NCBI GenBank assembly: GCA_902492325.1
Contig: CABULC010000002.1
Span: forward strand, 262,411 to 326,410
Source of the DNA: an uncultured Clostridium sp.
GTDB taxonomy: Bacteria; Bacillota_I; Bacilli_A; RF39; UBA660
Direction of reading: 5' to 3'
DNA length: 64,000 nucleotides
Part shown: positions 1 to 4,761 of the stretch, piece by piece
How positions within the stretch are numbered: position 1 is the stretch's first letter
How the letters are laid out: each line of letters starts with the position of its first letter
Notes under the pieces: model-generated
The model's database searches: none
Told to the model about the DNA's origin: nothing
The model's input: only the letters and a program-made list of their open reading frames with translations
Program-made: the position numbers and the translations under genes

Positions 1-1
1 A

Positions 2-232
2 ATAAATGATATAAAAAATTTAAATAATCTAAAAACAAATACTTTACAAATAGGTCAAGTTTTAAAAATACCAGGGTCAACAAATTATAATACTTACACA
101 GTGAAAAAAGGAGATTCACTTTGGAAAATAGCAGATAAGTACGGAACAACAGTTAATAAATTAATGACGATTAATAATCTTACATCAACAACGTTACAGA
201 TAGGACAAAGTATTTTAATTCCAACAAACTAA
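2..232 (+). CDS. LysM repeat protein, 3' end of gene (5' truncated by window edge)
   Basis: Frame-2 translation gives ...TYTVKKGDSLWKIADKYGTTVNKLMTINNLTSTTLQIGQSILIPTN*, two LysM-type repeats, TAA at 230-232. Confidence 0.7.
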   Translation: MNDIKNLNNLKTNTLQIGQVLKIPGSTNYNTYTVKKGDSLWKIADKYGTTVNKLMTINNLTSTTLQIGQSILIPTN

Positions 233-265: not shown

Positions 266-307
266 ATAAAAAAAAGAACAACGTGCTATGAAGCATTAAT
301 TGTTCTT
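266..307 (-). terminator. Terminator of the minus-strand AAA operon
   Basis: 8-bp stem (aagaacaa/ttgttctt) spanning the AAA gene stop, followed on the minus strand by an 8-T run. Confidence 0.45.
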
Positions 308-1773
308 CCTTTTCCCCATTGTCTAATTTTATCAATCTTTTCAGGATTAATCTTACTAATTGAATAACATTTATCAAAACATTCTAATAAGTAAGCACGC
401 GTTAATTTAATATTATCAGCCACAATATTATATGAAATATCTCTTATAGCTGATTCTATATCTGATGATGCAAATCCTTCGCTTTTAGTAATTAATTCAC
501 TCATTAGAGTATCATCAACTTTAACTCCTAAGTATTTATTTAAATACATTGAAATTATTTCTTTTCTTTCATTATCATTTGGTAAATCTACAAAGAACAT
601 TTCATCAAATCTACCTTTTCTAAGTAACTCAGCAGGTAAGTTATCAACATTATTTGCTGTTGCTACTACAAATACTTCCTTTTGACATTCTTGTAACCAA
701 AATAGAAATTGTCCAATCATTCTTGAAGTTACGCCACTTGATTCATTAACACCCGCTAATCCTTTTTCAATTTCATCAATCCATAGAACACAAGGAGCAA
801 CATGTTCTGCAGTTTTTAGTGCATTTTTAAATTGTTCTTCAGTTTGTCCAACATACATTCCTTGTACAGTTGCTAAGTCAAGCAAGAATAGTGGAAGATT
901 CCAACTTTTAGATATTGCTTTAGCAGTTAAACTTTTTCCACAACCAGGAACACCGACTACTAAAATACCTCTTGGAGGTTTAATTCCTCTCTTTATTAGT
1001 TTTTCTTTATTTTCAACATCTAATAACTTTCTTTTTGAGCTAAGCCACTTTTTAAGATTATTAAGTCCACCATAGACAACATTATCAGTTTCAATTTTTT
1101 CAAGGCCTTCCATATTAGAAAACATCTTACTTTTGGCAAACTTAAGTTCAGTTAAATCACCTTTAGTAATACTTCTCTTAGCAATTAGAACTGATATAAC
1201 ATTTTTAATTTCAGCTTCACTCAATCCTAACAATATAACTGATGCTTCTTTAAAGTTACTATCATCCCATTCTATTGGAAATTGACCATTATATTTATCA
1301 ATAAATCTATGTAATAAATCATATATTTCTTTTTCATTAGGAAAACTTAAATCAATATTCATACCAAGTTTCTTTAAATTTGGCCAAATACTTTTATCAC
1401 TAATAACAATTATAGAACAAGATTTTTCTTCACAACTATTAACAACATCATATAGAAATCTTGTAACTAAATTATCTTCATTTAAGTTATCAACATCACT
1501 TAGTAAATAAGTAACATTCTTTTTATCTTTTATATCATTACTTATAAATGATAATATACCACCTAATGTTTTTTCATTACTAACAATTTCATTATTTTGA
1601 AGACTATACATACCTTTAGACATAGAGTGAACATAAATAGTAGCATTTAATTCACTATTTATTTCTTTCAACATAGATAAAATTCTATTTTTTTCCATTG
1701 TGTTGATTACTATAAATGGAATTCTAGCATGTAAATAACTATCTAGTTTTTCTTTTACTTCTTCGTAATTCAT
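286..1773 (-). CDS. Classic-clade AAA+ ATPase. C-terminal active AAA domain (Walker A GVPGCGKS, Walker B VLWIDEIE, second region of homology ATANNVDNLPAELLRKGRFDE). N-terminal ~250 aa looks like a degenerate, nucleotide-motif-less AAA-like domain
   Basis: ORF-track protein motifs; GGAGG RBS 7 nt upstream; ATGA start/stop overlap with upstream gene. Confidence 0.85.
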   Translation of the reverse strand: MNYEEVKEKLDSYLHARIPFIVINTMEKNRILSMLKEINSELNATIYVHSMSKGMYSLQNNEIVSNEKTLGGILSFISNDIKDKKNVTYLLSDVDNLNEDNLVTRFLYDVVNSCEEKSCSIIVISDKSIWPNLKKLGMNIDLSFPNEKEIYDLLHRFIDKYNGQFPIEWDDSNFKEASVILLGLSEAEIKNVISVLIAKRSITKGDLTELKFAKSKMFSNMEGLEKIETDNVVYGGLNNLKKWLSSKRKLLDVENKEKLIKRGIKPPRGILVVGVPGCGKSLTAKAISKSWNLPLFLLDLATVQGMYVGQTEEQFKNALKTAEHVAPCVLWIDEIEKGLAGVNESSGVTSRMIGQFLFWLQECQKEVFVVATANNVDNLPAELLRKGRFDEMFFVDLPNDNERKEIISMYLNKYLGVKVDDTLMSELITKSEGFASSDIESAIRDISYNIVADNIKLTRAYLLECFDKCYSISKINPEKIDKIRQWGKGRTINAS

Positions 1774-2207
1774 TCATTTTCCTCCAAATAAGCATTATTT
1801 ATAGTATTCATTATAAAAGTATCATCAGTAGAATAATTTTTCTTTATTTCATCTAATATTCTATTATTAGATTCCATAATTTTTCTACCTAATTGTACTT
1901 GATTTTCTTCACGAACCAGTTTAGAACTTGCTATTAAGAAATCTAAAGATACTTCATCAGTATATTCTTTAAATTCAATTGAAAATCTATTATCATCAAC
2001 ACCTATACTAGGAAGTTTATCTAATAAAACTCTATATGCATTATTAAGTCTATTTTGAATTAATAAAGATAAATGATCTATAAATCTAAAATATCTATCT
2101 CCAGCTAAGTCGACTTCTAAGCTATTAATTCTTTCAACAATACTTTCACTTCTAGGTTCGTCAGCTAAAGATTCTAAAAAATTAACTAAATCATAATATG
2201 ATATCAT
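1770..2207 (-). CDS. Hypothetical helical 145-aa protein, third gene of AAA operon
   Basis: ORF translationally coupled at both ends (ATGA overlaps); no recognisable motif. Confidence 0.6.
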   Translation of the reverse strand: MISYYDLVNFLESLADEPRSESIVERINSLEVDLAGDRYFRFIDHLSLLIQNRLNNAYRVLLDKLPSIGVDDNRFSIEFKEYTDEVSLDFLIASSKLVREENQVQLGRKIMESNNRILDEIKKNYSTDDTFIMNTINNAYLEENE

Positions 2208-2383
2208 AATTCACCTCTATCAACAGTATCAAATGGAGGTTCTAAATCCCAATCAGGAATCTTAATCATTTCATTTTCATCTTCTTTTTTTTCATTTTTT
2301 TTCTTTTTGTTATTTTCATCATTTTTAACATTTAAATTCTCATGATTATCAAGTTCAGTTTTTAATTCTTCATCTTTATTCAT
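2204..2383 (-). CDS. Small 59-aa K/E/N/D-rich ORF not in ORF track (MNKDEELKTELDNHENLNVKNDENNKKKKNEKKEDENEMIKIPDWDLEPPFDTVDRGEL)
   Basis: Hand translation of minus strand. AGGAGG RBS (rc of 2391-2400) 7 nt before ATG at 2383. Stop TGA overlaps ATG of the 145-aa gene. Fills the only gap in the operon. Confidence 0.45.
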   Translation of the reverse strand: MNKDEELKTELDNHENLNVKNDENNKKKKNEKKEDENEMIKIPDWDLEPPFDTVDRGEL

Positions 2384-2394
2384 AAAATAACCTC

Positions 2395-4080
2395 CTACTT
2401 AAAATTAATATAATTGTTTTTATCAAATGAATTAATATAATTTATTAGTTCATTTTTATATTTTAAATTACGTTTACATATAAATTTTATATCAACAATT
2501 TCTGCTATAGTGTTATTAAGTTCAAATAAGTATTTTTTAACAGTATCATTATATTCATTAATGATATCTTGTCTATTCTTAGATATTTCATATAAGAAAT
2601 ACATAAGCATTCCACCGCCAACAAATATAACAATAATACCTAAATATAATTTTATGAACGCTAAGATCAAACCAACAACAATAAATATCGCACAATATAC
2701 AGTTTTTGGAGAAATATATTGTTGTTCCTGAGAATCTGCTTCGAAAGGCTTTTTAACATATTCTGTTAAAGAATCTTGTAATTCTTTTTCATTACTTCCA
2801 TCTTTTGTAGTTCCAGTCCATTCATTAATTTTTATTTGAATGTCATTATCGTTAGATTCATCCTCATTACCAAATACTTCATCAAAACCTTTGACAATAT
2901 TTTGTTTCGTTAATGAAATAGCTAGTTTTTTTGTAGATAATGAAACATCATCTCTATTTAATATTATATTTGTAAGCTCATTGCCAAAGTTATTTTTAAT
3001 ATTTAATGTGTTATTATATATTTCATATTTTTTATTAGCTTCTTCAACATTTCCTTTGCATTCTATAATTAATTTATTTTTTAATATAGCTTTTCTAAGA
3101 TCAGCTTCATTTTCTTCATAACTAAATAATAAATTATTTAAAAGTTCATCTATACTTTTTTCTTTTTGATCATCTTTATCTAATAATCTTAAGAATTTAG
3201 CATAAGCATTGTTATAAGAGTAGGAAAGAGCTAATTTATTTTTTAGTTTATCAAAATCTTTAACATAGTCGGCAGAAAATGGATATTCACTATTTTCTAC
3301 TACATCAATAGTATCACTAAAAAACTCTCTCCATCTTTCTATTTGATAGTTATTAACATTATCATTACTACTAAGTTTATTACACCAATCATCTATATAA
3401 GAAAGAATCAAATCAGTCATTTTAATACTATAAGCATCATTAACAAGTGATTCTAAAACATTTATAATATCATTATCCATACTATTAGGATTTTGTGTGT
3501 CTAAATATCTTTTTAACCATTTAAGAGCAGTATCATTTCTATTAAGTCTTAGATGTATCAAACAAAAAAGTAATGATGTTTTACTATCATTTAAACTAAG
3601 AGCTTTATTTAGTGCTTTACGAGCTAATTTTCTTTCATTTCTAAACCATGCACATAATGCGACTAATGCATAAGATAAATAATAGTCTGGTGTATTTAAT
3701 AAAGATTGTTCACTTTGAGTAAGCAAAGTATTTTTCTTTATAGTATTTAAATCCATACTATTTAAAATACCATTTATCTTTCTACGAATTAAATCATAAT
3801 GTCCATATTTTTTATTTAGTTCATTTTCTTTTAATAATATTTCATTTTGAGCATTAGATACTAGTGAAGAACCTCTAACTTCTAACATAAAATCTTTTAT
3901 TTCTTGTTCTAAAGATTTAACATTTGTCTTAAGAGTATCTACTTGACTATTAAAATCATTAATTTGCCCGTTAATATCAACAACGTCACCAGCAACACTA
4001 GACATGTTTTCAGATAAAACTTTTAAACTTTTTTCTAGTGCATCCATATCTCTTTTTTGTATAGCAGTTATTGTTGTCAT
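2395..4080 (-). CDS. 561-aa membrane-associated protein. N-terminal coiled coil, TPR-like helical middle region, two-helix TM hairpin (residues ~455-500) and ~60-aa C-terminal tail. First gene of AAA operon
   Basis: ORF with GAGGTGG RBS; hydrophobic segment VYCAIFIVVGLILAFIKLYLGIIVIFVGGGMLMYFLY; stop TAG lies inside RBS of next gene. Confidence 0.7.
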   Translation of the reverse strand: MTTITAIQKRDMDALEKSLKVLSENMSSVAGDVVDINGQINDFNSQVDTLKTNVKSLEQEIKDFMLEVRGSSLVSNAQNEILLKENELNKKYGHYDLIRRKINGILNSMDLNTIKKNTLLTQSEQSLLNTPDYYLSYALVALCAWFRNERKLARKALNKALSLNDSKTSLLFCLIHLRLNRNDTALKWLKRYLDTQNPNSMDNDIINVLESLVNDAYSIKMTDLILSYIDDWCNKLSSNDNVNNYQIERWREFFSDTIDVVENSEYPFSADYVKDFDKLKNKLALSYSYNNAYAKFLRLLDKDDQKEKSIDELLNNLLFSYEENEADLRKAILKNKLIIECKGNVEEANKKYEIYNNTLNIKNNFGNELTNIILNRDDVSLSTKKLAISLTKQNIVKGFDEVFGNEDESNDNDIQIKINEWTGTTKDGSNEKELQDSLTEYVKKPFEADSQEQQYISPKTVYCAIFIVVGLILAFIKLYLGIIVIFVGGGMLMYFLYEISKNRQDIINEYNDTVKKYLFELNNTIAEIVDIKFICKRNLKYKNELINYINSFDKNNYINFK

Positions 4081-4150: not shown

Positions 4151-4579
4151 TTAGTAAAGTTCATTACATACACCAGGGTCAGGAGCATAAAAACAATGTC
4201 CTTTATATCTTCCTGTATTTCTTTGATTAAACCATGTACCTTTACATTCTTCATTTTTCTTAGGTCCATAAAACCATAGTGCATTAGTGGCAGGGTAGTA
4301 ATATTCTCCTTTTAATACTCTTTTAGCAAGTTCTTTTTCTTTTGTAGTAGCACTTCCACTATTAAAAAGACTACTATTTGTTCCAACAAAACCACCTGGA
4401 TTTTGATAAACTACATCAGTAATACTTCTTATATTTTTAAAGTCTAAACAATTAGCTATAGCTCTATTAACTATAACATTTCCAACCATAAGCATGGCAA
4501 GATCACCTTCGGCAAGTGCTTCGGCTCTCATTAGTCTAGCACATAAATCTAATTCTTTAGTTGAATATTTAATAAGCAT
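4151..4579 (-). CDS. SleB/CwlJ-family cell wall hydrolase (spore cortex-lytic-type domain). True start at MLIKYS, not the track start that runs antisense through tRNA-Trp
   Basis: Motifs LCARLMRAEALAEGDLAMLMVGNVIVNRA and VVYQNPGGF; AGGTGA RBS before ATG at 4579. Confidence 0.75.
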   Translation of the reverse strand: MLIKYSTKELDLCARLMRAEALAEGDLAMLMVGNVIVNRAIANCLDFKNIRSITDVVYQNPGGFVGTNSSLFNSGSATTKEKELAKRVLKGEYYYPATNALWFYGPKKNEECKGTWFNQRNTGRYKGHCFYAPDPGVCNELY

Positions 4580-4674
4580 AAAATCACCTAATATATTGTA
4601 TGCAATAACAAAAAATATTGATTTGTTAAAATTTATATAGTATAATAATGTTGCTTTACAAAAAAGTGACACGT

Positions 4675-4749
4675 AGGGGTATGGTGTCAGTGGTAGCATG
4701 CCGGTCTCCAAAACCGTTGGGGAGGGTTCGAGTCCTTCTACCCCTGCCA
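4675..4749 (+). tRNA. trnW: tRNA-Trp (anticodon CCA), 3' CCA encoded
   Basis: Cloverleaf by eye: acceptor aggggta/tacccct, anticodon loop cuCCAaa, T-arm ggttcgagtcc; near-identical to Bacillus tRNA-Trp. Confidence 0.9.
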
Positions 4750-4761
4750 TATAAGATTAAT

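Follow-up and report, generated by a model that had tools for sequence, protein, structure and literature searches.

Gene organisation of the locus

The DNA studied here, a 64,000-nucleotide stretch of contig CABULC010000002.1 from an uncultured Clostridium sp. (referred to as the window), carries on its minus strand an operon in which a gene of 59 codons (2204..2383) lies between the genes for a predicted all-helical membrane protein of 561 residues (2395..4080) and a helical-bundle protein of 145 residues (1770..2207). The gene for a 495-residue AAA ATPase (286..1773) completes the series. A sequence-only reading had noticed, in the 187-nucleotide (nt) gap between the 561- and 145-residue genes (2208..2394), an uninterrupted open reading frame (ORF) with a perfect ribosome-binding site, which started close behind one neighbour and ended on the start of the other, and all of these features were found on the minus strand as described. 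The small gene starts with ATG, ends with TGA and encodes MNKDEELKTELDNHENLNVKNDENNKKKKNEKKEDENEMIKIPDWDLEPPFDTVDRGEL. Its Shine-Dalgarno (SD) sequence AGGAGG (2396..2391) is placed 7 nt (ttatttt) before the ATG and shares its first two bases with the TAG stop (2397..2395) of the 561-residue gene, so that the ORF begins 11 nt past that stop. At the other end an ATGA at 2204..2207 combines the TGA (2206..2204) with the ATG (2207..2205) of the 145-residue gene, and the SD sequence of that translationally coupled gene, AGAGGTGA (2211..2218, minus strand), lies inside the small-ORF codons R56-G57-E58. A further overlap, of 4 nt, joins the 145-residue gene to the AAA gene.

With a G+C content of 26% in the window, an open frame of 58 codons is expected from base composition with P ~0.009, and 100 of 100,000 shuffles of the ORF body remained open. 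The five remaining frames of the interval were all closed, with 1-19 stops each. The small gene had also been taken to be unannotated, and this was true of the ORF list from which it was read, because the cut-off of that list was 60 aa, but the gene is called in public assemblies and has homologues in RefSeq. An identical protein has been called in 137 blocks of public human-gut metagenome assemblies and in a 'Bacilli bacterium' metagenome-assembled genome (MAG), a 72%-identical homologue is found at NCBI as 'hypothetical protein SPI44_02085 [Bacilli bacterium]', and the homologues from Komagataeibacter and Comamonas are present in RefSeq as WP_146220915 and WP_175506032.

Codon-level selection on the small gene

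Five lineages with the same gene order and synonymous distances (dS) of about 0.3-0.9 were compared. The small ORF exhibited pairwise omega (dN/dS) values of 0.16-0.66, and the values for its neighbours were ~0.13 (561-residue protein), ~0.17 (145-residue protein) and ~0.06 (AAA protein). Within the small ORF the last 20 codons, encoding EMIKIPDWDLEPPFDTVDRGEL, had proportions of synonymous (pS) and non-synonymous (pN) differences of 0.318 and 0.017 (dN/dS ~0.05), and the middle segment had pS 0.545 and pN 0.263. The small-ORF indels were in frame without exception. The codon-level check that the sequence-only reading had proposed thus revealed purifying selection, strongest in the last 20 codons. 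An alignment of 21 homologues with 61-98% identity gave the same picture: MNNDEELK is conserved at the start, the middle varies and has in-frame indels, and IPDWDLEPPFDT[VI]DRGEL is invariant. The grounds named beforehand for giving up the gene were orthologous operons with frameshifts or stops, or without the C-terminal peptide, and none of these was observed in the loci examined, save that two loci (L085 and L095, treated below) have no recognisable small ORF. Judged by these codon comparisons, the 59-codon ORF is a real, selected protein-coding gene.

A conserved C-terminal motif behind a variable spacer

Residues 1-41 of the small protein (2261..2383, minus strand) constitute a charged, hydrophilic, non-conserved and presumably disordered spacer, and residues 42-59, IPDWDLEPPFDTVDRGEL (2207..2260, minus strand), constitute a conserved C-terminal linear motif, invariant among 22 close homologues, with the core P43-D-W45-D-L-E-P-P50 at 2234..2257. 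The tryptic peptide over the motif, cut between K41 and I42 and between R56 and G57, is IPDWDLEPPFDTVDR.

When used as a word-based query, the 59-residue protein retrieved its near clade only, and distant members were reached via the neighbouring genes. Homologues of the 145-residue protein led to loci with diverged operons, and homologues of the 561-residue protein were found down to 26% identity. A scan of GTDB genomes gave nine species, all of them uncultured Bacilli, 'Mollicutes' or Mycoplasmatota MAGs, and a metagenome scan gave 67 further loci with 22-100% identity and 24-69% G+C. In all 19 loci of the first comparison an ORF with the tail peptide followed directly behind, or overlapped, the 561-like gene, and an ORF with the tail peptide was present at the equivalent position in 51 of the 53 metagenome loci that extended 0.5 kb or more downstream. 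The metagenome loci include one variant without the first Pro of the motif and one fusion. The separate tail-motif ORFs comprise 44-234 aa, apart from one of 305 aa. The tail-motif ORF is also in place in Fusobacterium vincentii, Comamonas antarctica, Komagataeibacter nataicola and two IMG/VR contigs. The three named species are carriers in culture, C. antarctica on a 643-kb replicon and K. nataicola on 26- and 38-kb plasmids; the Fusobacterium homologue comprises 70 aa. The RefSeq records of Komagataeibacter and Comamonas name the 'AAA family ATPase' and call every other module gene 'hypothetical protein', and the Fusobacterium record has zero annotated features across the module stretch.

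From 56 distinct tails, with positions counted from the Trp as 0, we derived the consensus [LI]-P-x-W-[DN]-[LI]-x-P-P, followed by V/I at +9 and R at +11. Trp and the Pro residues at -2 and +4 occur in 100% of the tails, and the other positions are occupied by L/I at -3 (92%), D/N at +1 (85%), L/I at +2 (95%), P at +5 (89%), V/I at +9 (78%), R at +10 (56%) and R at +11 (83%). The distance from the Trp to the C-terminus is 12-18 residues in nearly all tails. The window protein contributes I42, P43, W45, D46, L47, P49, P50, V54 (+9) and R56 (+11) to this pattern. It also conforms to the wider family definition, [LIF]-P-x-W-[DNST]-[LIV]-x-P-P with V/I at +9 and R at +10/+11 behind an unconserved spacer, as does its gene with respect to location, between a ~560-aa TPR-membrane gene and a ~145-200-aa helical gene and usually overlapping the latter. 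Examples of other tails are KLPDWDLVPPYQLLKRVVRK, AFPKWDLMPPAVVVKRVRRKI and SLPTWSIEPPLEIKRGN, the high-GC loci have ALAGALPAWDLLPATGFVRRKR, and GLPDWDIVPPQVVVRRKHRV ends the 305-aa protein, which is built of Pro/Glu repeats.

Spacer conservation is confined to MNNDEELK..EL and to the near clade. Across the family the spacer measures 25-286 aa, is mostly acidic and consists to 64-85% of D/E/K/R/N/Q/S/T/P/G, being K/E/N/D-rich in AT-rich genomes and P/A/E-rich in GC-rich genomes. The sequence-only reading had described a low-complexity body with a defined C-terminal peptide and had interpreted the peptide as a short linear motif. This was right in kind, as conservation is restricted to the tail, and the K/E/N richness of the body is a compositional by-product of an unconstrained spacer that tracks genome G+C. 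In some versions one to three CxxC...CxxC zinc ribbons replace part of the spacer, N-terminally in L068:2986-3315 and L088:2339-2755 and C-terminally in L102:7729-8097, and separate zinc-ribbon membrane proteins repeatedly adjoin the module (L102:10263-11807, L030:3747-4709).

The C-terminal end of the motif serves two levels at once. In the first-comparison loci the last 3-6 small-ORF codons mostly hold the purine-rich SD sequence for the gene that follows, whose ATG is overlapped or immediately preceded by the small-ORF stop. Since R-G-E-L also encodes the SD sequence and start of the next gene, its invariance in the window's clade is partly a nucleotide-level effect. In the high-GC loci the conserved RR is encoded by CGC CGC or CGG CGG, which are not SD-like, and R(+10/+11) is therefore selected at the protein level too. 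For the family, the CGC CGC codons rule out that the C-terminal Arg is accounted for by the SD sequence only.

We also considered that the ORF might be non-functional as a protein, either as a translational-coupling or regulatory spacer or as a decayed, split-off 3' remnant of the upstream gene. This would agree with an interval that holds the SD sequences of both neighbouring starts, with a stop that overlaps the next ATG, and with the existence of fused versions of the upstream gene (see below). It is nevertheless very improbable, since purifying selection acts at the amino-acid level with synonymous changes in the motif codons, and the peptide is kept over the whole range of 24-69% G+C with unrelated nucleotide sequences. 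Moreover, the AT-rich Bacilli-type loci conserve a strong SD sequence for the small ORF itself, TAGGAGGT or TAGGAGGA placed 6-7 nt before its ATG in almost all loci of these clades (the weaker TAGGAGTG in L027), and the split arrangement is the rule, with more than 60 loci and 24 clusters at 60% identity of the upstream protein.

Neighbouring proteins of the module

An AlphaFold2 model of the 561-residue protein (alignment of 41 sequences; predicted local distance difference test, pLDDT, 79) is all-helical, with an N-terminal coiled coil, helical repeats and a C-terminal helix. The model contains a TPR-like domain, whose best structural matches include peptide-binding TPRs (Hop/CHIP, Pex5), and the predicted protein thereby has the TPR fold of a presumed receptor. 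A hydrophobic helical hairpin at ~458-510 is predicted to be transmembrane (TM) and to leave the C-terminal helix in the cytoplasm. The family is large, with 1022 clusters at 50% identity (E <=1e-3) among 1.84 billion representatives. The 145-residue protein was modeled as a six-helix bundle (pLDDT 90.7) with generic structural neighbours.

The AAA protein contains a classic-clade AAA domain from residues 270-396 onward (PF00004, 2e-29), and among PDB sequences it comes closest to the D2 domains of VAT, Cdc48 and p97 (1.6e-56). Among 11 orthologues Walker A (GVPGCGKS), the pore loop (MYVG), Walker B (WIDEIE) and the R-finger region (RKGRFDE) were invariant. The protein thus exhibits what is expected of a classic-clade AAA unfoldase, namely PF00004, Walker A and B, an aromatic pore loop 1 and the second region of homology, and the invariance of these motifs, including the aromatic pore loop, fits a substrate-threading unfoldase. 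Alignment of its ~220-aa N-domain with the AAA domain by hhalign gave a weak match in register (probability 30%, E 5e-4), and from this comparison the N-domain may be a degenerate AAA module. The protein matched phrog_8638, a phage protein family with no assigned function, over residues 4-493 of 495 (1.9e-87), that is, with both modules including the N-terminal one. The two-module AAA architecture therefore occurs in phages too; the remaining module proteins had no PHROG match. AAA proteins of the phrog_8638 type may be Ycf46-like (plastid/cyanobacterial).

The small, 145-residue and 561-residue proteins and their distant orthologues gave nothing above threshold in Pfam, NCBIfam, PADLOC or PHROG, a PDB sequence search with the 561- and 145-residue proteins gave no match, and a literature search found no relevant description of the module or of its three non-AAA proteins. 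Between distant loci the AAA N-domain is 37-51% identical, the 561-residue protein 25-38% and the 145-residue protein, the least conserved, 10-17%.

Upstream of the module the window carries a gene for a CwlJ/SleB-like cell-wall hydrolase of 142 aa (4151..4579, minus strand; PF07486, 6.8e-16). It is upstream in gut Bacilli-type loci and absent in distant loci, and we regard it as lineage-specific and outside the conserved module; a role in sporulation or the cell wall, suggested by this neighbour, was set aside for the same reason. The 199-aa ORF at 4151..4750 (minus strand) is over-extended, its first ~57 codons running antisense through tRNA-Trp(CCA) at 4675..4749 (plus strand), and related contigs call the 142-aa gene.

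Natural fusions and loci without an adjacent AAA gene

Three natural fusions carry the spacer and motif at the C-terminus of the 561-like protein. The fusion in L070 (604 aa) ends in ...SAALPIWNVAPPATTVRRKSSQNSR, with the 145-like gene directly next and no separate small ORF, and the fusions in P0139 (614 aa) and P0250 (621 aa) carry ...NPPQWDLIPPYENVRMVNNR and ...LAVWDLIPPPSVVQGSASAA. Seen against these fusions, the small protein corresponds to a C-terminal tail that the TPR-membrane protein can carry in detached form, and the predicted TM hairpin would place this tail on the cytoplasmic side.

The AAA gene comes next in 45 of the 54 loci with room downstream. Eight of the nine AAA-less loci belong to one Bacilli clade (L015, L022-25, L037, L038, L040), and the ninth, L088, is a disrupted locus. 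The AAA-less clade kept the core P-D-W-[DN]-L-E-P-P, and its 11-codon core had pS 0.49 and pN 0.045 across five species-level lineages. Since the core is constrained where no AAA gene adjoins it, docking to the AAA protein would not be required for the core. The second half of the motif behaved differently: V/I/L at +9 was found in none of five tails from this clade versus 33 of 35 in AAA-containing loci, and R/K at +11 in one of five versus 34 of 35. These patterns suggest a bipartite peptide, with an AAA-independent core and a second half (+9/+11) linked to the AAA protein. In the AAA-less gut Bacilli clade (L015, L022-L025, L036-L040; for example L024:6001-6456) a convergent LysM or amidase gene comes next, and the 145-like protein is longer (148-155 aa) with an acidic C-terminal tail. 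AAA-less MAGs include those with contigs CAKOHZ01, CAKOLO01, CAMERI01 and CAJJPX01.

The best-supported description of the 59-residue protein is a cytoplasmic, disordered protein whose only functional element is the C-terminal linear motif, an unconstrained charged spacer presenting the ~20-residue peptide. Taken together, the evidence makes it probable, if by no means certain, that the protein is a flexible tether with a docking peptide, which serves a membrane-associated AAA module as the detached tail of its TPR-membrane protein. In such a module the core half of the motif would bind a component other than the AAA protein, most plausibly the TPR domain of the 561-residue protein, in trans for the split pair and in cis for the fusions. 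The link to the AAA ATPase, by docking or by engagement of the pore, would be made by the second half and the C-terminal end, and the small protein could thereby couple the unfoldase to the membrane protein or gate that coupling.

The sequence-only reading had given an AAA N-domain as an example of the docking partner. In its full form this alternative makes the whole C-terminal peptide a docking motif for the N-domain (of the SspB-XB, MIM or SHP type) and the small protein an AAA adaptor or regulator only. The AAA protein is the best conserved protein of the module, in keeping with a very conserved motif, its gene follows in most loci, and the V/I(+9), R(+11) register is lost where that gene is missing, all of which the alternative would explain. 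Against it stand the purifying selection on the core in five species-level lineages with no adjacent AAA gene and the three fusions, which put the motif on the TPR-membrane protein and not on the AAA protein. The N-domain, moreover, has no recognisable MIT domain, ClpX-type Zn finger or Cdc48-N double-psi barrel and looks like a degenerate AAA fold. We consider exclusive docking to the N-domain unlikely, and the comparisons shift weight from the AAA N-domain toward the upstream TPR-membrane protein as the putative partner.

Several observations weigh against the tether as the tail of the TPR-membrane protein. The AAA N-domain is better conserved than either the 561- or the 145-residue protein, and since its conservation matches that of the very conserved motif, an AAA partner for the motif retains some probability. 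L085 and L095 had room downstream and no recognisable small ORF. In L102 the motif is internal, being followed by further spacer and a Zn ribbon, and a free C-terminus is therefore not always required. In the window's clade, constraint on R56 and on the last four residues is entangled with constraint on the SD sequence and start of the next gene. Finally, the bipartite argument represents one AAA-loss event, in which absence was judged at the locus only.

A fifth protein, shared C-terminal tails and genomic context

A fifth conserved protein of ~160 aa, containing Cys and His, was encoded in 36 loci, immediately before the 561-like gene or immediately after the AAA gene (for example L029:4506-4985, L099:1106-1576, L101:4504-4989, L100:8977-9471 and L088:3871-4362). 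Its motifs are ..LRxKRSxxYxEAMxKLDxGG.., ..KCYLGxPYEVH.. and ..IEVY.., it had no match above threshold in Pfam, PADLOC or PHROG, and it is absent from the 64-kb window and from the AT-rich Bacilli-type clades. Where a lineage has the fifth protein, nearly all of its complete AAA proteins close with a spacer and ..R-[RK]-x-V-L-V (more loosely in L060 and L084). In lineages without the fifth protein the AAA protein is ~25 aa shorter and has no ..RxVLV tail (that of the window ends in ..GRTINAS), with L078 as the sole exception. Basic-hydrophobic tails were also observed on most 561-like proteins, on the small proteins and on the proteobacterial 145-like proteins (loci L029-L103). This distribution suggests a shared tail receptor for basic-hydrophobic C-termini, possibly the fifth protein.

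These tails bear on a further explanation, in which the small protein is an unfoldase handle, the spacer being threaded while the motif holds the target, or else a competitor among the C-terminal tails of the module. In the case of Pup, substrates reach Mpa through threading of a disordered segment, and the AAA protein of the module has an intact pore loop and ATPase motifs, as well as a small partner with a long, acidic and unconstrained spacer and a free N-terminus. Competition would be favoured by the spread of similar tails in the fifth-component lineages, with ..RR/K-V-L-V on the AAA protein, ..VRRKxRI on the small protein, ..TRRIKV, ..RQVL or ..RRILxxxx on most 561-like proteins and ..RRRNILI on proteobacterial 145-like proteins. 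However, the fused forms leave the spacer without a free N-terminus, the window's clade lost the basic tails on all proteins and kept the motif, no C-terminal conjugation signature or ligase gene accompanies the small protein, and the model is inferential throughout. A handle or competitor is accordingly improbable in our estimate.

The module occurs in different genomic settings. The K. nataicola plasmids NZ_CP134889 and NZ_CP019877 (26 kb, 38 kb) carry the complete five-gene module (L099), which on the 26-kb plasmid lies between an IS3 transposase gene and genes for a WGR-domain protein and a tyrosine recombinase. Given this plasmid location beside IS and integrase genes, the module is horizontally mobile in at least some lineages. 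A phage origin was rejected, as two loci were found among 2.9 million viral contigs. In an AT-rich lineage the four-gene module (L028:4750-10536) lies in the replication-origin region between rpmH-rnpA-yidC-jag and dnaA-dnaN, and in the high-GC loci L082 and L090 it is located immediately upstream of rpmB-rpmG. A housekeeping function is favoured by the strong constraint and unchanging chromosomal location in the gut clade, and by positions beside dnaA or rpmB-rpmG in other lineages.

Beyond the convergent LysM/Amidase_3 gene (window 1..232, plus strand; L010, L011, L014, L015, L017) the contigs enter a strain-variable region, with large serine recombinases in several of them and a DNA methylase and an NgoPII-type restriction enzyme in L015, suggesting an integration hot spot beside the operon and not within it. 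Large proteins with an N-terminal prepilin-type methylation motif (N_methyl), mostly with LRR_5, flank the operon and are likewise strain-variable in presence (upstream region of L001, L003, L006, L009 and L013, as in L009:86-3527; L007:8150-10165).

On a wider and more tentative interpretation, which we put forward as a possibility worth stating and not as the probable case, the small protein would be the signature subunit of an undescribed, widespread membrane-associated AAA+ machine of four or five components wired by C-terminal tails. The components would be the TPR-membrane protein, the tail-motif protein, the helical-bundle protein, the two-module AAA unfoldase and, mostly, the ~160-aa Cys/His protein. 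The peptide would couple or gate the unfoldase, and the machine would be a bacterial analogue, of independent origin, of the recruitment of AAA proteins by tail motifs in Vps4, p97 and Pex1/6.

Proteins below 60 aa are routinely missed, and the one described here holds one of the most conserved elements of its operon. Its ORF flags a module that is absent from family models, defence catalogues and retrievable papers, and that ranges over Bacillota-related gut bacteria, Fusobacterium, Alphaproteobacteria and Betaproteobacteria. Cultivable hosts exist, and the module could reveal how a classic-clade bacterial AAA unfoldase gets targeted to a membrane protein.

Comparison with known systems

The small protein resembles Pup and UBact, which act with Mpa/ARC, in being a ~60-aa disordered acidic protein encoded beside a classic-clade AAA unfoldase, with a disordered segment as a possible site of threading initiation. 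In contrast to Pup and UBact it has no conserved C-terminal GGQ/GGE, the C-termini being ..DRGEL, ..RGEI, ..KRVVRK, ..KRGN and ..RRKR, and this variation makes a conjugated tag very unlikely. The Pfam-annotated gene tables of ~30 loci contained no Dop/PafA ligase or deamidase gene and no proteasome gene. A Pup-like tag was rejected, as both the conjugation terminus and the ligase and proteasome genes are lacking.

The MIM motifs of ESCRT-III and the MIT domains of Vps4 and CdvC offer a comparable use of C-terminal (some of them proline-rich) tail motifs, which recruit a classic-clade AAA protein to a membrane assembly. The tail motif described here is, however, unlike both MIM1 and MIM2. No MIT domain was identified in the AAA N-domain by Pfam or NCBIfam, the CdvC model covering residues 266-452 with 81.5 bits versus a cut-off of 650, and no ESCRT-III/PspA fold was among the matches listed for the 145- and 561-residue models, which were generic helical bundles and TPR proteins. 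With neither an MIT domain nor an ESCRT-III/PspA carrier, a MIM/MIT system was rejected.

Among the PADLOC defence models the best match of the AAA protein was IetA of the IetAS system (1.4e-33), over the AAA domain only (residues 251-465), and the other three module proteins matched no model. IetAS was rejected, as the NCBIfam IteA score was 85.9 versus a cut-off of 510 and no IetS protease gene was found.

The XB peptide of SspB, which docks onto the ClpX N-domain, shares with the small protein an unconserved flexible linker, a short conserved C-terminal docking peptide and an AAA+ unfoldase. Unlike SspB, the small protein has no folded substrate-binding domain, its motif is unrelated in sequence and its partner is a presumed one, and the AAA protein differs from ClpX in belonging to the classic clade (Cdc48-D2-like) and in having no Zn-binding N-domain. 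TPR clamps, such as Hop/CHIP with the EEVD of Hsp70/90 and Pex5 with PTS1, likewise combine a TPR-like domain with a conserved peptide near a free C-terminus. The core of the tail motif is nevertheless 12-18 residues away from the terminus and not at the end, the TPR protein is membrane-anchored and the binding is a predicted one.

The FtsZ linker with its C-terminal peptide and the acidic tip of SSB are close in design, with a variable disordered linker, a short conserved peptide and a variable, often basic end serving as a hub or tether near the membrane, whereas the tail described here is usually a separate gene product with unrelated sequence and partners. The cofactor motifs of p97 are a further example of a tether-plus-peptide device in an AAA+ machine. 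The device encoded by the small gene is thus of a known kind, and the module that carries it is apparently undescribed and widespread.

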